A stretch of DNA of 64,000 nt from Candidatus Moraniibacteriota bacterium (lineage in GTDB: Bacteria; Patescibacteriota; Minisyncoccia; Moranbacterales; GCA-2747515). The DNA lies in assembly GCA_016699795.1 (NCBI GenBank), contig CP065011.1:546474-610473 (forward strand). The letters run 5' to 3'. Positions 20,901-62,335 of the stretch are shown here, in pieces (position 1 is the first letter of the stretch; the number at the start of each line of letters is the position of its first letter). Under the pieces are notes generated by a model. It was not told the DNA's origin. It searched no databases and was given only the letters and a program-made list of their open reading frames with translations. The translations under genes and the position numbers were made by a program.

Positions 20901-23900
20901 GTGAGAAAGAAGTTTAAAAAAAAATCATTTCTTCACTTCTCCCTCCCTGTATTCTCTGGGATTTTTCTTTTTCTCTTTTTTTCTTTTTCTTCTCCTACTC
21001 ATGCTTCCACTGTAACCTGGACAGGAACAACAAGCACTGCTTGGACTACAGTAACGAACTGGAATACAGGAACTGTTCCTACAAGCACAGATGATGTTGT
21101 TATAAATTACACAGGAACGAATCAACCTACACTCGATGTAAATGGTGGAACCATTACTATACAATCTCTTACTCTTGGAGGAGGAGCATCAACTTCTACT
21201 CTTACGCTTTCTTATGGATCGCCTACAAACAAATTTATTGTTACGGGGAATGTAACGATTCTTGATAAAGGGTATCTTACGCATCCCTTTAATGATTCTG
21301 TAGAAACGCATAGACTCTTTATGGATGTCGGAGGAAATCTCGATGTTCAAACCGGAGGACAGATTAATGTGGATGGGAAGGGGTATAGTGGTGGTCCAGG
21401 ATTTGGTACATATGGGGGATCTTATGGAGGACAAAGTGCTACCGGAGGAACTATGGGGATAACATATGGGTCTTACTTAAATCCTGAAAATATTGGGAGT
21501 GGAGGGACTTCTATAAGTGGAGCTGGCTCTGTCATTCTTAATGTTACCGGCTCTGTTTTTTTAAATGGCTCCATAACTACAATAGGTTCTGATAGGGGTG
21601 CTTCTGCTGGATCTGGAGGGTCTGTAAATATTTCAACAACAACTTTTTCAGGTGCGGGAGTGATAAAGGCGAATGGAGGTGGTGCTAATGGTGGAGGTGG
21701 TCGCGTTGCTGTAAAACTTACAAGTGGAAATGACTTTGGATCGGTTACAATGCAAGCATATGGAACAGCAACTGGAACTATTTATACCGAAACCGCAAGT
21801 CAAGGATCAGGAAATGGAACGGTGATTATTGATAATAATAATCGAGCATCATCTGTATTTACTGTAATTCCATCTACCCAAACATGGACCATTAAAAATC
21901 TTGTTCTAAGAAACAAAGGGCAAATTAGTGTCCCCACAGGAACGACTCTTATTCTTGACAATCCCAACTCTGTAACCGGACTTGCTGGATCATCAGCAAT
22001 AGATAGTGGCATTGCTCTTCGAGGAGGAACCTTCGATCTTCCCCAAGGATTGCTCAATATTGAAAACTGGGCACTTATTGCAGATCTTCCTCATACACTC
22101 AATGGAGATATTATCGTCAAATCCGGAGGATATATGACTCATAGTGCTAATGGAAGTACCGAACTCTATAAAATGAATCTTACGATTAATGGGAATCTCG
22201 ATGTTCAAACCGGAGGACAGATTAATGTGGATGGGAAGGGGTATAGTGGTGGTCCAGGATTTGGTACATATGGGGGATCTTATGGAGGACAAAGTGCTAC
22301 CGGAGGAACTATGGGGATAACATATGGGTCTTACTTAAATCCTGAAAATATTGGGAGTGGAGGGACTTCTATAAGTGGAGCTGGCTCTGTCATTCTTAAT
22401 GTTACCGGCTCTGTTTTTTTAAATGGCTCCATAACTACAATAGGTTCTGATAGGGGTGCTTCTGCTGGATCTGGAGGGTCTGTAAATATTTCAACAACAA
22501 CTTTTTCAGGTGCGGGAGTGATAAAGGCGAATGGAGGTGGTGCTAATGGTGGAGGTGGTCGCGTTGCTGTAAAACTTACAAGTGGAAATGACTTTGGATC
22601 GGTTACAATGCAAGCATATGGAACAGCAACTGGAACTATTTATACCGAAACCGCAAGTCAAGGATCAGGAAATGGAACGGTGATTATTGATAATAATAAT
22701 CGAGCATCATCTGTATTTACTGTAATTCCATCTACCCAAACATGGACCATTAAAAATCTTGTTCTAAGAAACAAAGGGCAAATTAGTGTTCCCACAGGAA
22801 CCACTCTTGATCTTACTAATGCAACTATTACCAATGATGGACTCGGAACAAGTGGAATCAATGTAAATGGAGGAACTCTTTTAACTCCCGAAACAGTTAC
22901 CGTAAATGGAATATTCCTAAACATTACAGCTCCACAAACTATAAATGGAAATCTTATTCTTGGTGGGGGATCTACAACATCTACACTTACTGTAAGTAAT
23001 GGTTCTCCCACAAATAAATTCACCGTTACCGGAAATGTTACTATTGCCAACAATGGTTATCTTACCCACACAGCAAACACAAATGCAGAAACCCATAGAC
23101 TCTTCATGGATGTCGGAGGAAATCTCGATGTTCAAATTGGAGGAAAGATTAATGTGGATGGGAGGGGATATGGGGCGGGGTATGGACCGGGAATTTGTAA
23201 ATACAATAATACTTTTACTGCTTCATATGGAGGAAATAATATAGTGGATTGTGGCGGATTTGTTTACGGATCTCTTTATAATCCAGTTAATTTAGGAACT
23301 GGAGGGAATAATAATTCAGGGGGGGGGATCTATTGTTTTGAATGTTGCTGAATCAGTAATTATTTCTGGCTCAGTAACAGCAAATTCTGGATCTTCAAGT
23401 AATACAGGCACAGGAGGATCTATTAATATAATTACTGGAAGCATAAGTGGTTCAGGATCTTTAAAGGCAAATATGATTTCTAATGCTGGCGGAAGCAGTG
23501 GTGGTCGCATCGCCGTTAAACTTACTTCAGGAAATGATTTTGGGTCGATTGTAATGCAGGTATTTGGAGGACCCTCAGGATGTGGAGCTTTTCCTTGTGG
23601 AACCGCAGCAGCCGGCACTATCTACACTGAAACTGCCTCTCAAGGCCCCAACAATGGCACCCTCACCATAGACAATAACAATCAAACAGCTACCGTCCAA
23701 ACCCTCATCCCCCAAGACAACTTCACCAACAACTCCCTCTCCCTTGGAAACATCATTGTAAAAAACAAAGGACTTCTTGCCATTCCTACAGGAACCACTC
23801 TTAACACTACAGGAGACATAACCATAGGAACTCTTAACTCTTCTACTGACACCTCACACATAGTAGCCAATGGAACAGGAACTCTCATTTCTACCAATCT

Positions 23901-26900
23901 CACTATTCATGGAGTAAGTGGTACAGGAGCATCCATAAACACCAACACGAAAGGTTACACTCCTACTCTTGGAACAGGAGCAGGAACAACAGGCTCTCTT
24001 GGATATGGATCAGGAGGAACATATGGAGGAAGAGGAGGAAATAGTAGTGATGGAGCAACTTCCCCTAACACCTATGGAAATGACTTTGTTCCCGAAGATC
24101 TTGGAAGTGGAGGAGGAAAGTCTACAGGAGGAACAGGAGGAGGAGATATACGAATCAGAACGAATAACAATCTCAACCTCTATGGAACCATATCCAGTAA
24201 CGGTAGCGCTGGACTCACCAATGGTGGAGGAGGATCAGGAGGATCTATAAACATACTCTATGCAAAAAACTTCACCATAAACGGTGGAAAGCTTCAAGCC
24301 AATGGTGGGGCGGGACAAGGTGGTGGAGGAGGAGGGGGAGGAGGAAGAATCGCCTATGCCTATGAAAACAAAACATTTACCAATCAAACGATTCAAACAC
24401 TCGGAGGAACAAAAGGAGCTACCGCACCTGCAACTGATGGAAGCGCAGGTTCACTTAAATCTGGATACCTTGCTGGTTCTCTTATCTCTTCAGCATTTGA
24501 TTCCAGTAGTGATGCTAATGTCATGGGAACAATAGAATGGAAAGAAAATGAAATACTCCCAACAGGTTCTTCAGTAACTCTTTCTCTCAAAACTGCAGGA
24601 ACGAAAGGAAATCTTTCTTCTTCCCCCTGGATACAAATAGCACAATCTACTCCCTCTTCTCTTACTACACATTGTACAAAAAACAATACAACGGTAAGTT
24701 GCACAGCCAGTGCTATCCCTCAAGATATGAAAGATATCTTTGAAGATCGCTTCTTTCAATACAAAGTAGATCTTTCTTCTCCTGACCTTCTTTCTCAACC
24801 TCAAGTCGATGATGTAAAAGTAGGCTATGTTGTGAATGCTTTCCCTATGATTCAAAATGTAACCACTACTCCCAATACTGATAAAACAGTAACTATCACG
24901 TACGAAACAAAAGATGAAGATACCAATACCGGAACCAATACTCCAGGAATAGTTACTCCGAGCTTTGAATACTACAATGGAAGTAGTTGGATCAATATCG
25001 CTTCCAATACTCTAGCTCCCGAAGATATACAAAACAAAACAGTGAATCAAGATACGTACACAACACACAGTGCTACCTGGACTCCTTCTCTCGTAAGTGA
25101 ATCTTTCTATCTTACCAATGCAAAAATCCGTGTAACCGTAAGTGACAATGAAGGAGCGAATAATATCGCACGAGCTGAATCAAATACCTTTACCCTCGAT
25201 ACAAAAACTCCCACCAATCCCTCCCTCCTTGTTGATGCTTCCACTCAAGACCTCACCATTCCCTCCACCACATCTGTTCTTACTCTTGGAGTCAGTGATG
25301 ACTCTCCAACACAGATGAAGATTTCTCTTGACGAAAACCTTACCAACTCTCCTTGGGAACCTTTTAATGCAACGGTAACAATAAAACTCGAAACTGATCC
25401 CGACATTGTCTATACTCGCTTCAAAGATCAATACGGGAATGAAACACAAACCATACACACAACTACTCCAGAAACTCCTACACGAGTCATTTCTCAAGAT
25501 ACGAGTAATATGCTTCTTACCCCTCCAGAATACCGAGCCTTCGTAGGATTCAAAACAATAGAAGAACCTCCAACAGGATTCGGAAACTACAAACTCTATA
25601 GAAGTGATGACGCTACTACCTATACGCTTCAAAATATCATAACCTCAAGAACAACAAACTTCCTTACTGATGCTACCCCACAACCAGACATTCTCTACAC
25701 CTACAAAGCAAAGACAACAGACACACCAGGAAATGTTTCTTTCTTCTCACAAACCGTTACGATGAAAGCAAATGGTATTCAAGACTTCGGAGAAGGTGGA
25801 GGAGGATCAGATCAAACCCCTCCTGTTCTACAAAACGTAACCGTAGAATCTAAAGACACCACAACCGTAACTATCACATGGGAAACAGATGAACTCTCTG
25901 ACTCTCGTGTAGAATATGCAACCACTCCCAACACCTATACCAAACAAACAGGAGTCTCTACCTATGCTGACACCCAAGCACAATCAGGACTTCATAGAGT
26001 CACTCTTACCAACCTCACACCAAACACTCCCTACTTCTTTAGAGTTGCCTCTACTGATCCTCAAGGCAATACCGGAGTCAATGACAATAATGGCAATGGA
26101 TATGAAGTCACAACGAATCCTGGACCTTCTATCAGTGGTGTAGCGGTATCAAGTGCTTCTAACACACAAGCAACCATATTCTGGAATACGAATGTCCCTG
26201 CAGACTCTGTACTCCATTACAGTGAAAACAAGAATGGATCTCTTATCGATCCTATCACTCTCTCCGGATCAAGTGTTCTTACAAAAAATCATCAAGTAAC
26301 CTTAGATGCTCTTACTCAAGGAACCACCTACTATTTCTACGTTACCTCCACCGACTCACAAGGAAACATTGCCAATGACAATAATGGAGGAAACTATTTT
26401 CAATTCTCTACAACACTCGACGAAACACCTCCTACCATAACGAATCTTCAAACATCTCTTATCTCAAATGACAAAGCAGTTATTACAGCAAACACAGATG
26501 AAGAAGCATCCTTCCTCCTTCAGTACAGAAAAAAAGGAAGCCTTACCTTCACACAAACAGAACAAGGAACAACATACGATAGATCTCACTACAGGGTACT
26601 CGATACTCTTACTCCTGATACAGAGTATGAATATCAAGTGAGTGTTAAAGATATCAATCAAAACGAATCACAGAGTGATATACAAACAATGAAAACAACC
26701 TTAGATCCAGAATACAATCATGCACCTCTTTCAAAGATTCATACTATCAGTGATCCTCCTAAAGTACTCACTGATCAAAAAGCAGTCATAACCTTCCAGA
26801 CGGATCAAGCAGCAAACTGCATCCTTGAATATGGAACCCAATCAAGAAACTACCAAGAAGTTCCTCAAACAGAAGCGACAGGAATCTATGACACACTCCA

Positions 26901-28257
26901 TTCCCTGCATCTTGGAGGACTCATCTTTAACACAACCTACTTCTACAAACTTCTTTGTGAAGATAATCTTGGAACCCTCATAGAGAGTGAAGAAAAAAGC
27001 TTCACAACAAAACTCAAACAAGTAGACAGTGGAAGTGAACAAGCAGAATCTACTCCTCCCTCTATCTCAGGAGTCAAAGTCAAAGACATTACAGGAGAGA
27101 GTGCAGTCGTCAGTTGGGAGACGGATGAAGTTTCAAACTCACAGGTGAGGTATGGGACGACGAAGGAATTCGGGTCTGGGTCAATAGACGACACAGTCAA
27201 CTCCTCCCTCCAAAACTACACCACCTCCCACTCCGTAACTCTCCGAGGCCTCATCCCATCTACCAAATACTACTACTCCGCCCTCTCTCTCGACACCGCC
27301 GGAAACATAGGCACCTCCTCCCAACAAACCTTCCAAACGCAATCTCCTTCTTCCATCTCTTCCATTAAAGCTTCTTCCAAACAAATAGGGGAAACAACTA
27401 TCACATGGAAAACTTCCACTCCCACTACCTCTATTGTTGAATATGGAAACACAGAAAACTATGGACAAACAAGAAAAAGTGAAGAACTCAAAAAAGATCA
27501 TGAAATTATCATAAACAATCTTTTAGAAAACTCTACCTACCACTTCCGAGTAAAAGGAGAAGATGAATCAAAAAATCTCTTCTCTTCTTCCGACTCTACC
27601 TTTGAACCAAAGTCTCCACCACAAATCAAAGAAATCAAGATAGAAGTTCTTTCAGACAGAGAAGCAAAAGTAAACTTCCTTACTGATACTCTTACCGACT
27701 CTCTTGTAACCTACAAAAACAAAAACAAAGAAGAAGATCAAAAGAGTGAAGGAAATCCCTCCCTCCTCCAAACTCACTCCCTCACCCTCAAAGAACTCAC
27801 TCCTGGAGAAAACTACGTTCTTACTGTACGAGTCAGAGATGATATGGGAAATGAAACTCTCTCTGATGAGATAGAATTCACTATGCAAAAAGATGAAACT
27901 TCTCCTACAGTAGAAAGAGTCTCTACCGACTCCGCTCTTTCACAAAACGGAAAAGTACAAATGATTATTAACTGGCAAACAGATGAAGATGCTTCTTCCT
28001 CCCTCATCTACAAAGAAGGAAGAGCAGGAGAAGAAAAAACAGTGAATGTAAGTTCTTCCCCAACAAAGAATCACATCATTGTACTCACCTCTTGGAAACC
28101 AGGAACTCTCTACTCTTACAAAGTCATAGTAAAAGATCTGAGTGGGAATGAAACCATAACCAAAGACTACATCACCCTTACACCACAAACAAAAGAATCT
28201 GTTGTAGAACTCATCATAAAGAACTTCAAAGAAATCTTTGCTTGGACGGGAGGGTAG
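20901..28257 (+). CDS. Giant secreted surface protein (~2450 aa if joined) split into ORFs 20901..23351 and 23338..28257 by a frameshift at a G9 tract. It has a signal peptide, a thrice-repeated Gly-rich beta-helix-like module and about eight FN3/purple-acid-phosphatase-N-like domains.
   Basis: The module continues across the frame break: ..NLGTGGNNNSGGG|SIVLNVAESVI.. parallels the earlier ..NIGSGGTSISGAGSVILNVTGSVF.. FN3-like units have the form TITWETDELSDSRVEYATT...HRVTLTNLTPNTPYFFRVAS. Confidence 0.75.
21333..22798 (+). repeat. Exact in-frame tandem duplication, period 858 bp (286 codons). About 605 bp is 100% identical between the copies. A diverged third copy begins near 23090.
   Basis: aatctcgatgttcaaaccggaggacagattaatgtggatgggaaggggtatagtgg... 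recurs at 21335 and 22193. Protein segment NLDVQTGGQINVDGKGY...KNLVLRNKGQISVPTGTTL is duplicated. Confidence 0.9.
23319..23327 (+). repeat. Homopolymeric G9 tract at the frame break of the giant gene
   Basis: ttcagggggggggatc. With G8 (or G11) the two ORFs fuse in frame. Confidence 0.85.
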
Positions 28258-41209: not shown

Positions 41210-41283
41210 TCCGGGATGGCGCAGCGGTAGCGCAGGTGACTGTTAATCACTTGGTCGTCGGTTCGAATCCGACTCCCGGAGCA
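41210..41283 (+). tRNA. tRNA-Asn (anticodon GTT)
   Basis: TCCGGGA acceptor. D-arm GCGCagcggtaGCGC. Anticodon stem-loop GGTGA-CTGTTAA-TCACT. T-arm GTCGGTTCGAATCCGAC. 3' acceptor TCCCGGA followed by G and CA. Confidence 0.85.
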
Positions 41284-42874
41284 GAACTGGAGAACTAGAG
41301 TATAAAAGCTCTAGTTTTTCTTTATCTTCGGGCAAATTCGTAGGTTCGAACTGCTTGAATATCGTCTTTATCTCAGAAGAGATTTTTTCAAGGCCGACTA
41401 ACTTATTATTGGCTTCAATATTGAGTTTTTTCTCAGAAAGTGAGAGGTTCGAACCAATTGCCTTGAATATCTCTTTTCGCTTTTCTTCGTCGCCATCCTT
41501 GAATTTTTCTAGTGCATCTTGGGCGAATGCAAGCCATTCCTTGGCTTCTTCAAGTTGGTCTATCCAGTTGGTTGAATTGCTCTCAGAAGCGTCCAAACTT
41601 GCTCTAAGGCGTGATTTTTCTTGGGATATGGTATCTTTCTTGGTAATGAACTCACCTTCGCTTAGCTCGCCATTTATTCGCATATCTAGGAGTCTATCTA
41701 GCTTTTTGTCACAAGCTTCGAATTCTTTTTTGTGATCCTCGAGTGCTTGTTTCTTTTCTTCGATTTCATCCCTATTTTCTTCCATCAGTTTTTTGATTGC
41801 CCATTCCAAGAAAGTTGGATGAATCTTTATTTTCTTGAGAATTTTTATAATTTCTTCTTCAAACTTCTTTTCTTCGACCACTTTTTGATCACATTTTGGA
41901 TCTAGTCGATGACTGCAATGATAGTAGATGTAATAATGGGTGTTTCCATTCTGACATTTTTTAATTTTGTGTTCAGCTACAACTGATGCTCCGCATATTC
42001 CGCATCGTGTTGCTCCAGTATATTTGAAACTATATTTTCTTGGCCTAGTCGTTCCTCGTCGGCCGAGAATCATTTGAGTCTTTTCAAATTCCGCTTGAGA
42101 GATCATTGGCTCATGCTTTCCTTTATGCCATTGTCCGCTATCAGATGGGAATTCATACCAGCCATAGTAGAATGGGTTATTCATCATTGCATACCATGAG
42201 CTGATGGAAACTTTTTGACCATGCTTGTTTGTAAATTTCCAATCGCTAGTTCCTTTTCTATATGCCTCCGGGGGAGTGAGCTTTCCTGAAGCTACCATCT
42301 TCAGCATTTTTTGAATCGTTTCAAATCTTTCAGGGTCTTTTTCAATTTCTTTTTCACCTTTTAGTTTGATGGGATTGTGTTTGTATCCGAGTGGCGACCC
42401 ATTAGGATACCAACCTCGCTCTGCTTTGTTTCGTAGCCCTCGCTTTGTGTCAGTGCTTAAGTCTCGAATGAATTGATTTGCCATTCCTTGCTCTACAGCC
42501 ATCACCAGAACATTATCTTCAGGGTAATAACTTCTTCCGAATGTAAAAATATGTTTTATCATCTTACCCTGTAGCATCCAACTTATCGTACCGCTATCTA
42601 CAGGATTTCTAGACAGGCGATTAAGTTTCCAACAAAGTATTCCATCAGCTTCACCCCGTTTTATTTTTTCAAACATTTCGTTAAAAACTATCCTCCCAGG
42701 CTCTTTGGCTGATTTGGATTCATGCATAATTTCAGATATATTCAACCCGTTTTCTTCTGCGAGTCTTTTTAACTCTTCTATTTGTGAGTCGATTGATGCC
42801 ATTTGTCGATCCTCACTTTCGGATGATTTTCTGGCATAGAGGATGTATTTATTTGCCTTCACTTCTTGGTTCAT
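41243..42874 (-). CDS. Large serine recombinase (integrase)
   Basis: N-terminal resolvase domain YILYARKSSESEDRQMASIDSQ (catalytic Ser). Recombinase domain. Zinc-ribbon CGICGASVVAEHKIKKCQNGNTHYYIYYHCSH. Coiled-coil. 543 aa. Confidence 0.85.
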   Translation of the reverse strand: MNQEVKANKYILYARKSSESEDRQMASIDSQIEELKRLAEENGLNISEIMHESKSAKEPGRIVFNEMFEKIKRGEADGILCWKLNRLSRNPVDSGTISWMLQGKMIKHIFTFGRSYYPEDNVLVMAVEQGMANQFIRDLSTDTKRGLRNKAERGWYPNGSPLGYKHNPIKLKGEKEIEKDPERFETIQKMLKMVASGKLTPPEAYRKGTSDWKFTNKHGQKVSISSWYAMMNNPFYYGWYEFPSDSGQWHKGKHEPMISQAEFEKTQMILGRRGTTRPRKYSFKYTGATRCGICGASVVAEHKIKKCQNGNTHYYIYYHCSHRLDPKCDQKVVEEKKFEEEIIKILKKIKIHPTFLEWAIKKLMEENRDEIEEKKQALEDHKKEFEACDKKLDRLLDMRINGELSEGEFITKKDTISQEKSRLRASLDASESNSTNWIDQLEEAKEWLAFAQDALEKFKDGDEEKRKEIFKAIGSNLSLSEKKLNIEANNKLVGLEKISSEIKTIFKQFEPTNLPEDKEKLELLYSSSPVLLRESDSNRRPSD

Positions 42875-45856: not shown

Positions 45857-47845
45857 ATGAACGATGCATATTTTGGAAATAAAAAGATTTGTATAACGCA
45901 AAGACGTTATCTTGGCTCTAAAACTAAGCTACTATCATTTATAGATAGTATACTTGAAGGTGAGAATATAGAGTTTAATTCTTTCGCTGATATTTTTGCT
46001 GGAACTGGCACTGTTGCCAATCATTTTTATAATCGCTCTAAAATTATAGTGAATGATATTTTAGATTCAAATTCTCATGTCTACACAGCGTTTTTTGGTA
46101 AGGACATAATCAGGGAACAAAAACTGAAAGAACGACTAAAACATTATAATGACATTGAAATCAAAGAATATGATGAAAATTATTTTTCAAAAAACTTTTC
46201 AAACACTTATTTTGACGCAGAAAACGCTAAAAAAATAGGAATTATTAGGGATGATATTGAAAAATTATTTGAAGAAAAAATAATTACCAGTAGAGAAAAA
46301 TCTTATTTACTGACATCTTTGATTTACGCACTTGATAGAATTGCCAACACGGTTGGCCATTACGACGCATACAGAAAAATTGATATTCCAAATAAAAAAC
46401 TATTCTTGCTACCCCTTGATATAGCAAACTCTCGCTACTCTGCCAAAATCTACAAAGATGACGCTAATGAGTTGGTAAAAAAAATAAAAGCAGATGTTGT
46501 TTATATTGACCCGCCGTATAATTCTAGGCAGTATTCAGATTCTTATCACTTATTAGAAAATATCGCTACTTGGAAAAAGGAGACAGTTTTTGGTGTTGCC
46601 AAAAAAATTGACCGCTCTCACATCAAAAGCGAGTACAACATGAAATCTGCAGGCGTTGCCTTTGGCGATTTAATAGATAATATTAATGCGAAATATATCC
46701 TTGTTTCTTATAATGATATGGGGACTTCGGGTAATGCTCGTTCACAATCACGTATCAGTGACCATGAGATTTTGTCGTCGTTAAAACGGCGAGGTGAGGT
46801 AAAAGTCTTTGAAACCAACTTCAAACAATTCACTACTGGAAAATCGAGCAAGGATGATCTAAAAGAACGCATATTTTTGTGTAAGGTAGACATTGTCTCA
46901 AGAAACAATAAGGCGATAATTGCCTCAAAAAATAATCCTGTTCAAGCTGGCTTTGTAAAATCACCCCTTAACTACACTGGCGGAAAACATAAACTTTTAC
47001 CGCAAATAACAAAGTTATTTCCAGTTGGTATAAAAACTTTTTATGATGTATTTTCTGGCGGTGCGAATGTTGGAATTAACTCTACGGCTAAAAATATAAT
47101 CTGTATTGAAAAAAATCGTTATGTAGTAAGTCTGTTGAAGTTAATACAAAATGATAATTTTGAAGATTTGAATCAAAAAGTGATTGACATTATAGATAAA
47201 TTTGGTTTAAGCCAGAGCTATATAAAGGGCTACGACCATTATAATGTGGATAGTTCATCGGGTCTTGGTCAATACAATAAAGACGCTTTTCTAAATCTTC
47301 GCAGTGAGTTTAATAAAGAAAAAACAAGAATTGATTTATTGTTGGTGCTTGTTTTGTATTCTTTCAATAACCAAATTAGATTTAATTCAAATGGCGATTT
47401 TAATTTACCAGTTGGAAAACGGGATTATAATGGTAGTTCGAGGAGAAATGTTGCGTCTTTCAGCCAAGTATCAAACGAGAAAAAAATAGCATTTAAAAAT
47501 TGTGATTTTCGTGATGTTGAAAAAATGTCATTAATGAAAGATGATTTTGTGTATTTAGATCCACCATATTTGCTGGGTCTTGCTAGTTATAATGAAAAGG
47601 GAGGCTGGACAGAAAAAGATGAGAAAGACTTATATATACTCTTGACCAGACTCGATAAGAAAGGAATTAGATTTGCTTTATCAAATGTTTTAGAGCATAA
47701 AGGCAAAACTAATACAATTATGAAAAACTGGGCAAAAAAGCATAGTTACAAGATTCATAAACTAAACTATGACTACAAAAACTCAAATTATCACTCTACT
47801 GCAAAAAATAATAAAACCGTAGAGGTGCTTATTACAAATTACTGA
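45857..47845 (+). CDS. Fused tandem N6-adenine DNA methyltransferase (two D12-class/Dam-like domains), type IIS-style M subunit
   Basis: Domain 1: YLGSKTKLL, FAGTGTVA, VVYIDPPYNS. Domain 2: NYTGGKHKLL, FSGGANVG, FVYLDPPYLLG. Same architecture as M.AlwI/M.PleI/M.MlyI. Confidence 0.85.
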   Translation: MNDAYFGNKKICITQRRYLGSKTKLLSFIDSILEGENIEFNSFADIFAGTGTVANHFYNRSKIIVNDILDSNSHVYTAFFGKDIIREQKLKERLKHYNDIEIKEYDENYFSKNFSNTYFDAENAKKIGIIRDDIEKLFEEKIITSREKSYLLTSLIYALDRIANTVGHYDAYRKIDIPNKKLFLLPLDIANSRYSAKIYKDDANELVKKIKADVVYIDPPYNSRQYSDSYHLLENIATWKKETVFGVAKKIDRSHIKSEYNMKSAGVAFGDLIDNINAKYILVSYNDMGTSGNARSQSRISDHEILSSLKRRGEVKVFETNFKQFTTGKSSKDDLKERIFLCKVDIVSRNNKAIIASKNNPVQAGFVKSPLNYTGGKHKLLPQITKLFPVGIKTFYDVFSGGANVGINSTAKNIICIEKNRYVVSLLKLIQNDNFEDLNQKVIDIIDKFGLSQSYIKGYDHYNVDSSSGLGQYNKDAFLNLRSEFNKEKTRIDLLLVLVLYSFNNQIRFNSNGDFNLPVGKRDYNGSSRRNVASFSQVSNEKKIAFKNCDFRDVEKMSLMKDDFVYLDPPYLLGLASYNEKGGWTEKDEKDLYILLTRLDKKGIRFALSNVLEHKGKTNTIMKNWAKKHSYKIHKLNYDYKNSNYHSTAKNNKTVEVLITNY

Positions 47846-47848
47846 TTT

Positions 47849-49681
47849 TTGTGGCATACTGAAATTATGTTAAAAGCGTGGTCAATTACAACAACAGTTA
47901 GAAACCCGGAGCGTCTTCGTGATTTTTTGGTTGCTTTAAAGCCCCTTGAAAATAAAACTTGGGACAATGCTAATCAGGAAAATTATCAAAAACTTTTAAT
48001 CAAGAACCGTCTATATGGTTTTGGTAATGCACAATTTTATAATGGATTGACTGCAGATATTGTAAAGATGATAAATGATACCGACAGTGAAATTAATGAC
48101 AACACGGTAGATGAAATCATAAGATTGAAGAATTATACGGAATTTGCAATGCGTGGTCGTCAATCAATAAATCCTCTTACAAAATTTGGATTTGTAATTA
48201 TAGATAATGGCATAGTTAAAATAACAGAGCTTGGAAAGAAACTTATAGCTAGTGAAAAAGACGCTGGTGATGTGTTTCTGAAGTCGTTTATAAAATGGCA
48301 AATACCAAACCCAGCTAGTAACGATTTTCCAGATGATGGCGATTATGATGTCGTGCCTTTCGTTGCAACTCTTAAATTGATAAGCGAAGTTAATAGAATT
48401 GAAGCAGGGAAAGGAAATAATGCAGTTGGAATTAGTAAACGAGAGTTTTCATTATTTGTTCCATCATTGGTTAAGTATGCGGATATTGAAAAATATGCAG
48501 AGGAAATTGTTAAATTACGAACCCTGCAAAAAGGAAAAAAGAAGCAAGAACGAAAAGAGATTCGAGATAATTATCGTAAACAATTCGCAACCAACTTTTT
48601 GGGCACGAGTAAACAGACTGCGATCGATAAACTACTCCAAAATCTGAGGGATTATGGGGATAATGCAATTAGGTATTTCCGTCTAACAAAGTTTATCCGT
48701 ATTCGTGGCAATGGTTTTTATATTGATTTGGAGCCAAATCGTCGCATTGAGATCGAAGCTTTATTTGAAAGTGAATTTTATAAGCCAAAACATTTTGCAG
48801 ATAGAAATGAATATGTTTCCTATATGTCTGATGACAACTTGCCTGTATTGCCTTGGCAGACAAAAGATAAATTATCTAAAATTGCTAGCGATGTCTATAA
48901 GGATGTAATTGAATTGCAGAGCAATCTTGGTTTGGCGGTTGAAAGCAAGAAAGAGATATCGGCAATGTCTGAAAATGATCTAGTATTGTATGTTAATGAT
49001 TTGCGAGAAACTCGTAAGGAATTGCAAGAAAAGGACAATCATATCAAATCTCAACCAGTTTCATCAATCACTCAATATATTGAGCAACTAGAAGGAATTT
49101 TTGAATTTGAAAACCGTGCTTTAATGCTTGAATATCTCTCAACAATGGGACTTCACGCACTCAATGACGCAAAGGAAATTAAACCTAATTATCCAGTTGG
49201 AGATGATAACGAGCCGACATCAACTGCTCCTGGCGGTATGGCAGACATTGAATGTTTTTATGACAACTTTAATATGATCTGTGAAGTTACGATGTTGAAT
49301 GGCCGTGACCAATGGTTTAATGAAGGACAACCAGTTATGCGACATTTGCGTGATTTTGAAAACTCACACGACAATGCTTATTGTATTTTCATTGCACCAA
49401 AAATTCATACTGATAGTGCTGAAACTTTCCATATTGCTAACACAGTTGGATATAAGGGTAGCAAGCAAAAAATTGCACCGCTCACGATAAAACAATTTGT
49501 TGAATTATTAAAAACACTCAAAAAAATACGTGAGGCAAATAAAAATTTCACGCACAACAGTTTGAAAATTTTAATTAACGATATTGCTGATAGTGCCAAC
49601 AGTATTAGTAATTCTGATGATTGGGTTGCAAATACACAGAATATCGTCAATTCTTGGGCTATTAGTTTAGTAAGTGCGTAG
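47849..49681 (+). CDS. Putative type IIS restriction endonuclease (AlwI/PleI/MlyI/N.BstNBI-like), assigned by context and size
   Basis: 610-aa ORF starting 4 nt after the tandem methyltransferase. Size matches that REase family. No motif verified from memory. Confidence 0.45.
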   Translation: MWHTEIMLKAWSITTTVRNPERLRDFLVALKPLENKTWDNANQENYQKLLIKNRLYGFGNAQFYNGLTADIVKMINDTDSEINDNTVDEIIRLKNYTEFAMRGRQSINPLTKFGFVIIDNGIVKITELGKKLIASEKDAGDVFLKSFIKWQIPNPASNDFPDDGDYDVVPFVATLKLISEVNRIEAGKGNNAVGISKREFSLFVPSLVKYADIEKYAEEIVKLRTLQKGKKKQERKEIRDNYRKQFATNFLGTSKQTAIDKLLQNLRDYGDNAIRYFRLTKFIRIRGNGFYIDLEPNRRIEIEALFESEFYKPKHFADRNEYVSYMSDDNLPVLPWQTKDKLSKIASDVYKDVIELQSNLGLAVESKKEISAMSENDLVLYVNDLRETRKELQEKDNHIKSQPVSSITQYIEQLEGIFEFENRALMLEYLSTMGLHALNDAKEIKPNYPVGDDNEPTSTAPGGMADIECFYDNFNMICEVTMLNGRDQWFNEGQPVMRHLRDFENSHDNAYCIFIAPKIHTDSAETFHIANTVGYKGSKQKIAPLTIKQFVELLKTLKKIREANKNFTHNSLKILINDIADSANSISNSDDWVANTQNIVNSWAISLVSA

Positions 49682-54579: not shown

Positions 54580-55317
54580 GTGAAACAAAATAAAAAAGGC
54601 AACATCGCTGTGATAACAATTATTATTGTGATTGTGGCAATTACGGCAGGAACTATCGGCTGGTTGTTTGCGAAAAGAACACAAACACCAATAATGCAAA
54701 ATCAAGCAAAAGAAGAAAATCTACCTCTTACACAACAGGATAAAAGTTTGAAATATGACATTCATTTTCCAGACCGATATTCGGGAACAGGATGCTATAA
54801 AAAAGAAGCTGATGGAACCGAGAATCAATATGAATTTAGGGAAGACTTTAATATCGATGCTCCGACAACGACAGTCAAATATTCGAATACTGAAAAAGGA
54901 ATTTCTTTTGATATTCCATTTAATCCAAACTGGGGGAATGAAGATTGTAAAGTAAAACCATATATTGAATTTACGCACTCTTCCGGCGACATTTCGATTG
55001 AATTTAGCAAGCCGACGGCGCCGGTGGGAAGGGAGTTCGGCCTAATAATATCAAAATATAGACCAGCGGAAGATATAATTACTGCTGAACAGAAAGATGT
55101 TTACCCAAATCCTAATCCTCGGAAAAAAACTATCGGAGATAAAAATATGATAGTTTATGATGACTACGGAATGATCCAAGTAACACATTACGAAGTTATT
55201 GGAAAAAAGTATAACTACATATTTAGTTATAGCAACTACGATTCTTCTCTCAATGATAGTCTCATAAAATCACTAGAGAGTATAATTGCTGACATGGAAA
55301 TAAAGAATGTTGAATAG
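54580..55317 (+). CDS. Hypothetical secreted/anchored protein (245 aa)
   Basis: N-terminal TM/signal (IAVITIIIVIVAITAGTIGWLFA). Confidence 0.35.
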   Translation: MKQNKKGNIAVITIIIVIVAITAGTIGWLFAKRTQTPIMQNQAKEENLPLTQQDKSLKYDIHFPDRYSGTGCYKKEADGTENQYEFREDFNIDAPTTTVKYSNTEKGISFDIPFNPNWGNEDCKVKPYIEFTHSSGDISIEFSKPTAPVGREFGLIISKYRPAEDIITAEQKDVYPNPNPRKKTIGDKNMIVYDDYGMIQVTHYEVIGKKYNYIFSYSNYDSSLNDSLIKSLESIIADMEIKNVE

Positions 55318-57813: not shown

Positions 57814-58318
57814 AAAGAAATGATTTTAAATAAAAGAGCTTGACGAGCTCTTTTTTCTTTGAACTCATTTATAAATCAAGGTATTACTATGACGGGAGAT
57901 GTTTAATGAAAGATTGAAAGTGACGATGAAATAAATAGGAAAGTCTGCTATAGATTTCACTATTTTTATTTTGAAAAAGAATTTTTTATTTTAAATATTT
58001 TTGTTTTTAGTTCCAAGATAAACATGAATCAAAATTTTTGCTTAGACGTTTATACTTACATTGCGTTCTAAGAATTCATAGAGTATCATTACTACTATAA
58101 CCTAAAAAACACACAACTATGTTTTCAAAAAAAACAAAAAAAAACAAAAAAAAGATTCTAAAATACAAATCATTTCTCTTCTTCTTGTCATAAGCTTTTT
58201 TCTTGGAAGTATTCTTCTTATTCAAAAAACAACAACATCGAATATCTTCTCAGGAATTTCTTTTGATTTACCATTTTCAGATGCTGCTACTCCAACAATA
58301 AAACTTTCAAATGGTGAT

Positions 58319-60142
58319 ATGGAGCGAGTTGTAAATGGTAAGCCTAAGGATTGGGATTCTGGTGGACAGGCTGGAATTTCCGGTCTCACCTTGGCGAGTA
58401 TGCAAGCCCCAATGAGTAGTACGGGTTCTAAGAATGGTTCTTACTATTTGCGTGCAATGAATGCAATCGGAAAAGACGGTGCGTGGATGTGGATTACAAA
58501 TTCAGAACGCATAAACACGCAAGGAGCTACAGAGATACGAGTTAATGGTTTCGTCCGTAGTAGCGGTATAGACCTAATTATTTTTGGTATTAAAGAACAG
58601 GATGCGAATGGAAATGAAATTCAAAGTCCGACTGGACCTGCAATGAGAACTCCTTCATGGGCATGGCATGAATACACAGCCAATGCAGGAAGTCATTGGT
58701 TCAAACTTCATCCGAATACACGAACAATTTCATTTTATCTTCTTGCAAAGCCCTATACTTCAGTTCAGACATATCTTGACCTCGATCAAATTTCACTGGA
58801 GGCTAAGGGAGGCGTGACGGGACAACAAACTCTTACTGTAGCAAAAGCTGGTACTGGAGCAGGAACAATAGTATCAAATCCTTCTGGAATTAATTGTGGT
58901 ACAACATGTTCAAAAACATTACCTCAAAATACAAAGGTTACACTCACAGCTTCACCTCAAAGCGGAAATACTTTTGAAGGATGGGCAGGAGACTGTAGAG
59001 GAGCAAGTAAGACGTGTTCTGTATCTCTTACACGAGCTCGTAATGTAACGGCTACGTTTAAGGGTTCGAACACGGGAGGCTCTATCACCGTCTCTCCGGC
59101 TACCATTGTTTCGAATAATTCTTCCGTAATGCAAGGCATACTTTATAATACACAACTTGATGCTCCACTTGTTATGGTTCCTGGGGGTATCTATTGGTAT
59201 GCATCAAATTTTGTTTGTTCTGGAGGTATAAAACATGCTCAACTTAAGGGATCTTTGGATAATCCTTATGCGACACCAACCTGGTTTAAAGATACGTGTC
59301 AGAGAAATTCTAGCTATTTTTGTACTAACGCAACTTCGGTAGGAGCTAACCTTTTCACAACATTCAATCCGAGTTTGACGGATGTTGTGAATTTATGGTT
59401 GATGGGTGTGTATCAAATTCAAGGTGCTGAACTTTTGGGAATAGTGCATGAAGAAAATGTAGGCACCTTTACTCCTGGAGTTGGTTTAACTCGGATTGGT
59501 TTAGCGTGGTCGAATGATAGTGGAAATACCTGGAAATATTTAGGTCGAATAGTATCTCGTAACAATGATGTTAGTGGTGATAATATTCAAGGAGCTCCTT
59601 ATATAGTAAAAGATGGGTATTTATATGTATATTTTCATGACTACCCAGGTTTTATTGCAGTGGCAAGAGCAAATTTAAGTAGTGTTATATCTTCAGCTAG
59701 AGCAGGGCATGTCGGATCGAATATATGGAAAAAATATTATAATGGCACATGGACGCAACCGGGTTTGGGTGGATTAAGTAGCCAATTAGGACTTCAAGGA
59801 ATTTCCCATACTCAGATGGTGTACAGCACAGTGAAAAACAAATATTACATGGTTACAACTAAACTTTCATATTCTGGTGGTAATACAAATGTCAATCTTT
59901 ATGAATCTACTGATGGCGTAAGTTGGAAACAATCAGCTAAAATTGCTGATGAACCCGCAAGTCAACAAGGAACTAATGGTGGTTATCAGTATTGTTCTAT
60001 TGCAAGTACTCAAGGAACAGCGAATCATTCCGTGGGATCTGAATTTTATGTCTATTGTATGAAATTTTATTCAGGTGTAGTGGGTGTTTGTGGTTCTAAA
60101 AATCAACAAAATTTGCATCGTTGGAAAATTACTTTACAATAG
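58319..60142 (+). CDS. Secreted protein with a divergent InlB B-repeat domain plus a large C-terminal domain (paralog 1). The likely N-terminal signal anchor is encoded upstream from ~58154 without an in-frame canonical start.
   Basis: LTVAKAGTGAGTIVSNPSGINCGTTCSKTLPQNTKVTLTASPQSGNTFEGWAGDCRGASKTCSVSLTRARNVTATF. The upstream in-frame sequence encodes KIQIISLLLVISFFLGSILLI. Confidence 0.6.
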   Translation: MERVVNGKPKDWDSGGQAGISGLTLASMQAPMSSTGSKNGSYYLRAMNAIGKDGAWMWITNSERINTQGATEIRVNGFVRSSGIDLIIFGIKEQDANGNEIQSPTGPAMRTPSWAWHEYTANAGSHWFKLHPNTRTISFYLLAKPYTSVQTYLDLDQISLEAKGGVTGQQTLTVAKAGTGAGTIVSNPSGINCGTTCSKTLPQNTKVTLTASPQSGNTFEGWAGDCRGASKTCSVSLTRARNVTATFKGSNTGGSITVSPATIVSNNSSVMQGILYNTQLDAPLVMVPGGIYWYASNFVCSGGIKHAQLKGSLDNPYATPTWFKDTCQRNSSYFCTNATSVGANLFTTFNPSLTDVVNLWLMGVYQIQGAELLGIVHEENVGTFTPGVGLTRIGLAWSNDSGNTWKYLGRIVSRNNDVSGDNIQGAPYIVKDGYLYVYFHDYPGFIAVARANLSSVISSARAGHVGSNIWKKYYNGTWTQPGLGGLSSQLGLQGISHTQMVYSTVKNKYYMVTTKLSYSGGNTNVNLYESTDGVSWKQSAKIADEPASQQGTNGGYQYCSIASTQGTANHSVGSEFYVYCMKFYSGVVGVCGSKNQQNLHRWKITLQ

Positions 60143-60359
60143 AGAAAAATTATAAAGTCTTGACCATCCTAAATAAAAGAGTATCATTACTACTATAACT
60201 TAAAAAAACATACAACTATGTTTTCAAAAAAAAAAAAAAAAAAAAAAAAAAGATTCTAAAATACAAATCATTTCTCTTCTTCTTGTCATAAGCTTTTTTC
60301 TTGGAAGTATTCTTCTTATTCAAAAAAAAGCAACAACGGAGAGCTTCTCAAGAATCTCT

Positions 60360-61232
60360 ATGGACTTACCATTTTCAGATGCTGCAAATATCGATTTGCC
60401 ACCTTCAGATGCTACAGATGTTGATTTACTATCTTCAGATGCCGAAGATGTTGATCTACTATCTTCAGATACTGCTGAAGTTGCACTTAAAACTCTTATC
60501 GTGGCCAAGGTGGGTGCTGGAGCGGGAAAGATAATATCAAATCCTTCGGGAATTAATTGTGGCACAACCTGTTCTAAGGCCTATGCGAACGGTACCAGAG
60601 TTACTTTAACAGTAACACCTGCTCAGGGCAGTACCTTTGCGGGTTGGGGTGGTGCTTGTTCCGGTACGGGTACGTGTAGAGTTTTGATGGACGCTGGAAA
60701 AAAAGTAACGGCGAGATTTAATACAAAAATACAAACAGAAACCCTCAAAGTATCCAAAACCGGCTCAGGAACGGTAACATCAGAACCTGCTGGTATTAAT
60801 TGTGGTGCCACCTGTTCTAAAGATTATGAGAAAGGAATCAAAGTTATTCTGACAGCGGTCCCTGCACAGGGAAATAGCTTTGGTAGTTGGAGTGGTGGAC
60901 CTTGTCTTTCTGCTTATTCGTACAAGTGTACGGTTTCAATGGATTTTGCAAGAAATGTGACAGCGAATTTTATTACAGGAACCACACAAACACTCACCGT
61001 ATCTAAAGCTGGTACTGGGTCAGGAACAGTAACATCATATCCTGCTGGTATTGACTGTGGTTCGGCTTGCACTAAATCCTACACGAATCAAACCGCTGTT
61101 TCTTTGAAAGTAATCCCTGCGGCAGGTAGTGTCTTTGCGGGTTGGAGTGGGAATTGTTCTGGTTTGTATTCATGTGCGTTTCAAATGAATGCTCCGAAAA
61201 ATGTGACGGCAACATTCAATAAAATTCAATAA
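60360..61232 (+). CDS. Secreted protein with three divergent InlB B-repeat domains (paralog 2). Same leader arrangement; the signal-anchor coding region begins ~60252.
   Basis: Three copies of [LTVSK]AGTGxGTVTSxPAGIxCGxxCxKxYxxxTxVxLxxxPAxGSxFAGWSGxC...NVTAxF. Acidic DxxDVDLLSSDA repeats at the N-terminus. Confidence 0.6.
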   Translation: MDLPFSDAANIDLPPSDATDVDLLSSDAEDVDLLSSDTAEVALKTLIVAKVGAGAGKIISNPSGINCGTTCSKAYANGTRVTLTVTPAQGSTFAGWGGACSGTGTCRVLMDAGKKVTARFNTKIQTETLKVSKTGSGTVTSEPAGINCGATCSKDYEKGIKVILTAVPAQGNSFGSWSGGPCLSAYSYKCTVSMDFARNVTANFITGTTQTLTVSKAGTGSGTVTSYPAGIDCGSACTKSYTNQTAVSLKVIPAAGSVFAGWSGNCSGLYSCAFQMNAPKNVTATFNKIQ

Positions 61233-61569
61233 AAGTATATAAATAGAAATCCTCATTGTAGCCAAAGCTGGTACTGAGTCATGAATGGTGTGATGTTAGA
61301 TTTGTTGCTAATAGTATTTGAGGCACGCCCATCTATTCCGAAGCTTGCCTAGGTGAAATGGAGAAATTTTCATAAATATTGAGGCATTTCATGCTATTTC
61401 ATAGTTCTAAAAGGGGTTACCTTGAGTTTTTACGGTTCCGCAAAGAGATTTCGTCGTGCCCAATTCTTGGAATAAATAGAGCTTACATACAAGTATTTTG
61501 TATAATTTTTTGTGTTATAAAATATTCTGTTTGATTGTATTAATCTTGTAATTTTAAATATATAAAAAT

Positions 61570-61950
61570 ATGGAAAAGTATGTAGACGGATTCGTGCTTG
61601 TAGTTTCAAAAGATAAATCTGAGGAATACAAGAAAATGGCAGAGGGTGGCCGTGATATGTGGATGAAATTTGGCGCTCTTTCATATTATGAATGTCGGGG
61701 GGAAGATCTTATTTCACAGGAAGAGGGAGATGAAAAAGCTCGCGCATTTACTGAGATGACTGGAGCAAAAAGTGATGAGATGGTTTGGTTTTCATTTATA
61801 GTTTTTAAATCTAAAAAACATCGAGACGAAGTTAACGCTAAGGTGATGGAGGAAATGAGTAAACAGATGGAAGGAAATAAAGATATAGCAATGCCTTTTG
61901 ATATGAAACGAATGGCTTATGGGGGCTTTCAAGTAGAAATAGAAGGTTAG
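61570..61950 (+). CDS. DUF1428 family protein
   Basis: MEKYVDGFVLVVSKDKSEEYKKMAEGG...ALSYYECRGEDL matches the DUF1428 N-terminus (assignment from memory). GC-richer than its surroundings. Confidence 0.5.
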   Translation: MEKYVDGFVLVVSKDKSEEYKKMAEGGRDMWMKFGALSYYECRGEDLISQEEGDEKARAFTEMTGAKSDEMVWFSFIVFKSKKHRDEVNAKVMEEMSKQMEGNKDIAMPFDMKRMAYGGFQVEIEG

Positions 61951-62042
61951 AAAATGAATTTAGAATCATAAAATTACTTTCAGCAAAATGGGGACAGTCT
62001 TGATGTAATTTTTTTAAAATACTTTTTTGAAATGTAGTGAGT

Positions 62043-62181
62043 GAGGATGCTTCTCAAAATCATAGAGTAAATGGATCTTTCTATGCGTACTGTGCGAAAT
62101 TTAAAACAAGCACTACTAACATAGGTAGTTCACAAAGAAATTCTCAAGCACTACATCGTTGGAAGATAACTTTACAATAGA
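62043..62181 (+). pseudogene. 3'-terminal remnant of a third InlB-B-repeat-family paralog
   Basis: Encodes ..NGSFYAYCAKFKTSTTNIGSSQRNSQALHRWKITLQ*, versus the paralog-1 C-terminus ..GSEFYVYCMKFYSGVVGVCGSKNQQNLHRWKITLQ*. Confidence 0.6.
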
Positions 62182-62335
62182 GAAAGATTTTCAGATATAA
62201 TTTTGAGGTTTTTTGGAAAATTTCTTTGAATAAAAACGTGTAGACGTGCGTAATGCTATACTTTTTAAGGGATATTTGAACACTAAGAAAGACTTAAAGT
62301 TTTATGTTTTTACTCTATTGAGAGTGTGAAAACAT

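Follow-up and report, generated by a model that had tools for sequence, protein, structure and literature searches.

An unbroken A26 tract in the duplicated leader of a predicted Moranbacteria surface-protein gene, a candidate phase-variable locus

Among described systems, the closest functional match to the locus analyzed here is vaa of Mycoplasma hominis, a surface adhesin gene in which a poly-A tract at the 5′ coding end sets the reading frame by its length: A8 turns vaa ON, A7 and A9 turn it OFF, and the gene switches at 1e-3 to 1e-4 by slipped-strand mispairing (PMC524362). Our locus lies in a 64,000-nucleotide stretch of the Candidatus Moraniibacteriota bacterium assembly GCA_016699795.1 (contig CP065011.1, forward strand, positions 546,474 to 610,473), hereafter the window, in which positions are counted from the first letter. 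It comprises two neighboring genes, paralog 1 and paralog 2, whose start regions are duplicated. In paralog 2, an uninterrupted run of 26 adenines (A26) separates the start codon from the coding segment of a membrane anchor that is read in another frame. We propose that the A tract of this leader is a hypermutable, frame-setting repeat and that the gene is a candidate phase-variable contingency locus, leaky via slippage, a reading to which we give roughly an even chance of being right. Like M. hominis, the organism is a small AT-rich bacterium of the wall-less or reduced kind, and like vaa, the paralogs have mosaic, cassette-like passenger parts. They differ from vaa in their tract, which is three times longer (A26) or forms a compound (A9C)n repeat, in their uncleaved anchor without a lipobox (vaa encodes a lipoprotein), in the sharing of one leader by at least three paralogs, and in their host, which belongs to an unrelated lineage of the candidate phyla radiation (CPR). 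Moreover, switching has been seen in vaa, whereas the Moranbacteria locus is known from sequence alone.

Poly-A frameshifting also underlies the phase variation of P78 in Mycoplasma fermentans. In the mycoplasma vlp, vsp, vpma and vsa families, the conserved 5′ cassette consists of a promoter and a signal sequence, and vlp of M. hyorhinis uses a poly-A tract. As in these families, the Moranbacteria paralogs combine a conserved 5′ cassette with divergent, repeat-rich passengers (vpma: PMC2268961); the lipobox cysteine that marks a mycoplasma-type variable lipoprotein family is missing. The vlp tract sits in the promoter spacer and acts on transcription, whereas here the tract is found downstream of both the -10 box and the ATG, which rules out a vlp-type promoter-spacer mechanism. 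The vsp, vpma and vsa genes switch by site-specific inversion, whereas no meaningful inverted repeats were found at the leaders, and an inversion switch was thus ruled out as well. Given the lack of a lipobox and of an inversion system, the unrelated lineage and the position of the tract outside the promoter spacer, the locus is not a member of the mycoplasma variable surface families.

Three other groups of loci bear a partial resemblance. The poly-G/C loci of Campylobacter, Neisseria and Haemophilus place homopolymers in surface-structure genes that undergo reversible frameshifts (PMC8355987, PMC5084427), and a G9 tract at 23319 of the window is of that type; their tracts, however, usually count 8-13 G/C and belong to host-associated pathogens with documented polymorphism. 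Buchnera and Blochmannia have AT-rich reduced genomes in which A-run frameshifts are rescued by RNA-polymerase slippage (PMC5009743, PMC3017870), but those runs count about 9-12 A and occur at arbitrary sites in housekeeping genes through mutational decay, whereas the tract studied here has a fixed place in a common surface-protein leader. Lastly, in the ATG frame, the tract of paralog 1 ends with A_AAA_AAG, a heptamer of the dnaX/IS type, and a -1 shift there lands on the GAT codon that opens the body frame. Unlike dnaX and the IS3 family, the locus has no stimulatory hairpin or internal Shine-Dalgarno sequence, and paralog 2 needs the opposite shift.

Read directly, the start of paralog 2 consists of ATG (60218-60220), TTTTC, the unbroken A26 (60226-60251) and GAT (60252), with the onset of the tract 8 nt after the ATG, inside the 5′ coding region. 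The 34 nt between the ATG and the GAT equal 1 mod 3, which puts the ATG out of frame: as assembled, it opens a frame of only 13 codons, MFSKKKKKKKKRF*, ending with a stop at 60257-60259. The GAT frame stays open from 60204 up to its stop codon (61230-61232), includes the listed open reading frame (ORF) from ATG 60360 and translates as DSKIQIISLLLVISFFLGSILLIQKK...; its 342 stop-free codons compare with 678 in the body frame of paralog 1. Tract lengths of A25 or A28 (-1/+2 nt) would give a continuous protein of 337-338 aa beginning with MFSK8-9DSKIQIISLLLVISFFLGSILLIQKK..., whereas A26 gives the 13-aa peptide. The original prediction had described an uninterrupted A26, an ATG out of frame and a need for -1/+2 nt, and sequence and translations bear it out on each of these. 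The features of paralog 2 are the following:

60160-60187, plus strand: promoter-like site, sigma-70-like (TTGACC, 16 nt, TATCAT; 10 of 12 consensus matches)
60178-60385, plus strand: leader cassette common to paralog 1 (58080-58287 there; blastn, 92.3% identity, 209 columns)
60218-60259, plus strand: start codon and 13-codon dead-end frame, MFSKKKKKKKKRF* (translation as assembled)
60226-60251, plus strand: A26 tract, unbroken (sequence, run counts, shuffles)
60252-60329, plus strand: signal-anchor coding segment, with DSK, 20 hydrophobic residues IQIISLLLVISFFLGSILLI, then QKK (body-frame translation)
60366-60483, plus strand: 30-nt tandem repeat, 3.9 copies with 78% matches, coding acidic decapeptides (DLPFSDAANI, DLPPSDATDV, DLLSSDAEDV, ...)
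60484-61232, plus strand: passenger of three divergent InlB B-repeat domains, ending with the stop at 61230-61232 (Pfam PF18998, 3 stretches, E = 1.4e-29)
60360-61232, plus strand: the only part of paralog 2 in the public record, 290 aa (IPN70_02970, QQS60829.1)

A-run counts in the window fall from 238 runs of A5 to 133 of A6, 54 of A7, 17 of A8 and two of A9, after which comes the single A26. A word of 16 A occurs in the window within the A26 tract only, and in 0 of 100 dinucleotide-preserving shuffles. A26, already called extreme for a coding leader in the original prediction, is an extreme outlier against the run lengths of this DNA, beyond chance. It is best read as coding for a Lys run in the N-terminal region of the anchor. 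Two properties of phase-variable genes driven by simple sequence repeats are present: the repeat lies in the 5′ coding region, and its length modulo 3 sets the frame of an intact ORF.

The leader cassette contains the -10 box, a short A-rich 5′ untranslated region without a Shine-Dalgarno sequence, the ATG, the A tract, the anchor and a DLPFSDAA linker. Its duplication with paralog 1 at about 90% identity, as originally predicted, was recovered by blastn, over about 208 bp and not about 240 bp. The promoter-like site begins 18 nt past the stop of paralog 1, and its -10 box falls within the duplicated leader; as the consensus scan returned more sites in shuffles than in the region itself, this assignment carries little weight. 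Shine-Dalgarno sequences are missing at most genes of the window, including both paralogs, and upstream regions are A-rich, which makes the context of ATG 60218 a normal one. A GGAGG-like motif was seen at only 3 of the approximately 40 starts examined (31842, 34385 on the minus strand, and 36858).

Paralog 1, located immediately upstream, shows the same arrangement with another tract, and its public record likewise covers only part of the gene:

58119-60142, plus strand: paralog 1 (ATG 58119; tract 58127-58153; body frame from GAT 58154 to the stop at 60142)
58319-60142, plus strand: the only part of paralog 1 in the public record, 607 aa (IPN70_02965, QQS60828.1)

The tract of paralog 1 is A8-C-A9-C-A8 (27 nt), in which TRF finds 2.7 copies of a perfect 10-nt unit. 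With 35 nt from ATG 58119 to GAT 58154, this gene would need +1/-2 nt to be in frame, and its offset therefore differs from that of paralog 2, as predicted. Promoter-like elements were recognized by eye at 58061-58066 (TTGCGT) and, after 17 nt, at 58084-58089 (TATCAT). Besides the anchor, the body encodes an N-terminal domain, a single InlB repeat and, at the C-terminus, a sialidase-like domain. The latter is conserved, with 74% identity to P0001 and homologues in Dyella and others; a protein that UniRef names exo-alpha-sialidase is among its homologues. Over about 70 nt, the DNA of the anchor segment is 100% identical in the two paralogs. A 25-nt segment of the paralog 1 leader linker (58252-58276), coding GISFD(I/L)PF, recurs with 92% identity at 54897-54921, in the middle of the gene of an unrelated 245-aa anchored protein (54580-55317); this may be a chance match or a small motif.

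By exact protein look-ups, the window belongs to an NCBI metagenome-assembled genome of Candidatus Moranbacteria with the locus-tag prefix IPN70, which consists of a single contig of 1,186,598 bp. The same contig contains, outside the window, a third gene with this leader. The gene, IPN70_02270 (QQS61731.1; P0068 in the homology search with paralog 1), is placed about 139 genes upstream by locus-tag arithmetic, and it carries the leader in frame from the same ATG (MFSKKTKKNKKKQKKDSK...). Its protein begins MFSKKTKKNKKKQKKDSKIQIISLLLVISFFLGSILLIQK..., with the N-terminus MFSKKTKKNKKKQKKDSKIQIISLLLVISFFLGSILLIQKATTRDIFSGISFDLPFSDAAS. Since IPN70_02270 reads in frame from the same ATG, translation truly begins at the upstream ATG and runs through the Lys-rich tract as coding sequence. 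This agrees with the architecture originally predicted, namely an ATG, a poly-A tract coding poly-Lys and a signal anchor in another frame. The passenger of IPN70_02270 comprises an InlB repeat near-identical to that of paralog 1 and a different C-terminal domain, with a faint, sub-threshold match to PIG-L. Back-translated from SKKTKKNKKKQKKD with the codons of paralog 1, its tract would read TC-A8-C-A9-C-A9-C-A8-GAT. The deduced length of 37 nt would equal 1 mod 3, like 25 and 28, and would exceed the tract of paralog 1 by exactly one A9C unit (10 nt).

As assembled, this family would thus have one copy ON and two OFF in a single genome, with tract lengths of 26, 27 and, as deduced, 37 nt. 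The leaders are 92% identical in DNA between paralogs 1 and 2 and 83-91% identical in protein among the three genes, and the 25 residues of the anchor are all identical in the three proteins. The passengers differ, being sialidase-like in paralog 1, made of InlB repeats only in paralog 2 and faintly PIG-L-like in IPN70_02270. Directly established are the anatomy, the frames, the leader common to these genes and the presence of an in-frame third paralog in this genome.

Relatives of the leader were sought beyond this genome. A scan of metagenomes with a protein pattern from the three-leader alignment returned no relatives, and a leader-only protein search gave two word candidates, neither of which scored. 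With phmmer, the 56-aa leader had 0 matches among 1.84 billion representatives, a weak negative given that the composition filter may drop a Lys-rich hydrophobic query. In-frame variants of paralog 2 (K7 to K10) were absent from a collection of 15 billion proteins. Among genome contigs, loci related to IPN70_02270 had only homologues of its C-terminal domain; the best of them (L001), on a 50%-GC contig, differs at the N-terminus and lacks the tract. The organism itself is represented among Logan contigs (P0121, P0245 and P0251).

Regarding the protein encoded by paralog 2, the repaired N-terminus would be a textbook positive-inside membrane anchor: MFSK8DSK, 20 hydrophobic residues, then QKK. 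The leader MFSK8DSKIQIISLLLVISFFLGSILLIQKKATTESF contains no Cys and hence no lipobox, unlike a lipoprotein signal peptide. The 30-nt tandem repeat continues the DLPFSDAA end of the common leader, and a change in its copy number could keep the frame. Downstream of the stop, traces of a longer gene and one unrelated gene were found:

61247-61285, plus strand: start of a fourth InlB repeat, an out-of-frame remnant (repeat comparison, 79% to the reference copy)
61570-61950: DUF1428 gene (QQS60830.1)
62034-62189, plus strand: decayed remnant of a paralog-1-like C-terminus with stop and 3′ flank (tblastn, 48 aa, 46% identity, E = 2.6e-10)

A DNA repeat accompanies the last of these, with 92% identity between 62154-62189 and 60116-60151. 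The stub at 61247-61285 indicates that paralog 2 is 3′-truncated, and the succession of stub, DUF1428 gene and remnant points to a past rearrangement or insertion in what would once have been a longer gene.

In the mechanism that we propose, translation would start at ATG 60218, the A tract would code for the Lys-rich cytoplasmic N-terminus of the membrane anchor, and the anchor would carry the InlB-repeat passenger to the cell surface. The length of the tract would shift by slipped-strand mispairing in replication, and should do so readily since the homopolymer is very long. Length modulo 3 would set the frame of the ATG, with A25, A28 and so on being ON and A26 being OFF and producing the 13-residue peptide, and stochastic, heritable ON/OFF switching of paralog 2 would be expected. 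The switch would be leaky, slippage of RNA polymerase and ribosome providing some full-length protein even from an allele of OFF length. Such slippage is documented elsewhere: runs of 9 A/T lead to transcripts with extra bases, and with a 28-A tract about 40% of the product was in another frame (PMC5009743), while ribosomes slide on Lys-coding poly-A (PMC4363877). The C-interrupted tracts of paralog 1 and IPN70_02270 should be more stable and could gain or lose either a single base or a 10-nt unit (1 mod 3). The open body frames of 342 and 678 codons and the 25/25 identical anchor residues in three paralogs argue against old pseudogenes. From this anatomy we infer tract-length variation in the population, adaptive switching and rescue of expression by slippage.

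Elsewhere in the window, another homopolymer interrupts a long coding region:

23319-23327: G9 tract, between ORFs 20901-23351 and 23338-28257, very unusual in 34%-GC DNA

This G9 separates an 816-aa ORF (IPN70_02795) from a 1639-aa fn3-repeat ORF (QQS61822.1). A tract of G8 would fuse both into a 2452-aa surface protein (...NNNSGGGSIVLNVAES...). Two paralogs occur in the same genome: QQS61620.1 (...NGSGGGSVILVISG...) is intact, with 2468 aa, and QQS60964.1 is another split copy, of 1639 aa. Either the G9 locus represents a second phase-variable family, or polishing has failed a second time in repeated sequence. Within the giant fn3-repeat gene, positions 24000-28000 display a GC content of 0.41-0.42, a strongly negative GC skew and a positive AT skew, which is probably an effect of the Thr/Ser/Asn-rich repeats.

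Phase variation and a homopolymer miscall in the assembly predict the same static picture. According to the latter explanation, the dominant genotype has an in-frame tract (A25 or A28) whose length was mis-called by one base, paralog 2 being an ordinary, constitutively readable gene with a long Lys run; extended, it would have the composite tract of paralog 1 and the G9 mis-called likewise. We regard it as a serious possibility, if on balance unlikely. Several points speak for it and weigh against a phase-variable switch. A 26-nt homopolymer is beyond reliable calling, since every platform leaves its length uncertain by one base or more. The three homopolymer frameshifts of the window (paralog 1 tract, A26 and G9) are all at its longest tracts, within 64 kb, and all three are in sequences with two to three near-identical copies per genome, where multi-mapping short reads polish worst. 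For both families the assembly also contains a copy in frame: IPN70_02270 carries the leader, and the 2468-aa QQS61620.1 is the counterpart of the G9 gene. To these must be added that the tract of IPN70_02270 was deduced from protein and not from DNA, that tract lengths could be compared between paralogs only, a 25-mer of the leader having 0 matches in genome, metagenome and viral contig collections, and that the 3′ truncation of paralog 2, with remnants downstream, may reflect decay. The original prediction had held that two paralogs both OFF argue against a sequencing error; this argument does not stand, since both frameshifts lie in long A-runs of a sequence with at least three copies in the genome and the G9 frameshift is also in multi-copy sequence. 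We assume that the IPN70 genome is a Nanopore assembly, polished by Racon, Medaka and a single Illumina round of Racon (method in PMC8012365), and that, like other closed Patescibacteria genomes with IPN tags, it presumably stems from the Danish activated-sludge study that used this procedure. Against a miscall, approximately 85 runs of 7-8 nt are found in intact long ORFs of the window, indicating that homopolymer errors are not widespread in the assembly, and an A9 run (20916) is likewise in frame. By deduction, the same would hold for the four A8-A9 runs of IPN70_02270, which would make errors at the A8/A9 runs of paralog 1 unusual. Even if its most frequent length were in frame, a run of at least 25 A would be unstable in replication and transcription, and heterogeneity would be expected (PMC524362, PMC5009743).

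Pseudogene decay is a live alternative that was absent from the original prediction. Paralog 2 would then be a truncated, non-functional duplicate whose tract lost its interruptions and drifted neutrally, its frame having no regulatory meaning. The gene does stop after three InlB repeats and is followed by the out-of-frame stub of a fourth, by the unrelated DUF1428 gene and by the 46%-identical C-terminus remnant, and its A run is pure and the longest among the copies. Nevertheless, we find decay improbable: the frame 60204-61232 remains open for 342 codons despite AT-rich DNA, the stop coincides exactly with a domain boundary, the anchor segment still matches that of paralog 1 at 100% identity, and the frame is shifted in paralog 1 too, a full-length gene whose C-terminal domain is conserved, so that the frameshift is not tied to truncation. 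Another alternative is obligate programmed recoding, in which the DNA is fixed out of frame and acts as an attenuator, full-length protein arising only via transcriptional realignment or ribosomal frameshifting or sliding. The heptamer of paralog 1 with its -1 shift to GAT fits such a mechanism, as do the length of A26, far above the threshold of about 9 nt for RNA-polymerase slippage (PMC5009743), the position of the run at the junction of the two frames and the sliding of ribosomes on poly-A (PMC4363877). However, paralog 2 needs a +1 or -2 shift and not -1, which leaves the paralogs with no common shift and paralog 2 without the heptamer geometry. The 97 nt following the tract have folding z scores of -0.04 (paralog 1) and -1.83 (paralog 2) against shuffles, that is, no significant structure; no Shine-Dalgarno-like stimulator is found upstream; and in IPN70_02270, the only other known leader-bearing gene, the out-of-frame layout is not conserved. 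We consider this mechanism very improbable, and the regulated slippage of the original prediction, in its programmed form, is not indicated, given the lack of a significant downstream RNA structure and of a layout conserved in the third paralog. Next to no credence is given to a last alternative, in which the A tract is not translated but serves as an A-rich translational enhancer, with translation starting at a downstream non-AUG codon (ATA 60261, ATC or ATT) and the upstream ATG playing no part. It would accord with window genes mostly lacking Shine-Dalgarno sequences and having A-rich leaders, and with a body frame devoid of ATG, GTG and TTG between the tract and 60360. Yet IPN70_02270 reads through in frame from the same ATG, the Lys-rich stretch fits the positive-inside rule ahead of the membrane anchor, and bacteria initiate only very inefficiently at AUA, AUC or AUU.

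Two further candidates were rejected. Termination-reinitiation from a short upstream ORF was ruled out, as this ORF stops at non-homologous places in paralogs 1 and 2. An alternative genetic code is not indicated, long ORFs being intact under table 11.

If the phase-variable switch is real, it may be part of something broader. Tentatively, the Moranbacteria cell may run a phasome, with several surface-protein families, giant or anchored, whose paralogs are set ON or OFF independently by homopolymer or (A9C)n tracts. The basis for this suggestion, which we think rather unlikely, is the leader family with one copy ON and two OFF, together with the G9 family with one copy intact and two split. 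In such a phasome, expression from A26 might be set mainly by RNA-polymerase and ribosome slippage and less by DNA length. If true, it would amount to mycoplasma-like surface variation of independent origin in an environmental ultra-small bacterium, and would presumably vary contacts with hosts or phages.

CPR bacteria, or Patescibacteria, are thought to live attached to other cells, and to our knowledge almost nothing is known of variation at their surface. Full-text literature searches returned no paper that connects phase variation with Patescibacteria or Saccharibacteria. A repeat-driven ON/OFF leader of several surface proteins, if true, would be a concrete handle on CPR surface variation. 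The locus also has a bearing on annotation, as the public starts of IPN70_02965 and IPN70_02970 at downstream ATGs drop the membrane anchor and make surface proteins look cytoplasmic. More generally, homopolymer frameshifts in long-read metagenome-assembled genomes may be biology or artefact, and read-level checks are needed to tell them apart.

The rest of the window offers some observations of its own. Its NUDIX protein is QQS60824.1 and its DnaG is QQS61829.1, and among known RNA elements Rfam finds only two tRNAs. A large serine recombinase gene with Resolvase, Recombinase and Zn-ribbon domains (41243-42874, minus strand) overlaps tRNA-Asn (41210-41282) in the 3′ part of the latter. Over 42-44 kb there is a change of strand and skew, which together with the recombinase looks like a mobile element integrated at the tRNA. 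A restriction-modification pair occupies 45857-49681, with a 662-aa protein containing two stretches of D12-class N6-adenine methyltransferase, followed by an AlwI-family restriction endonuclease.

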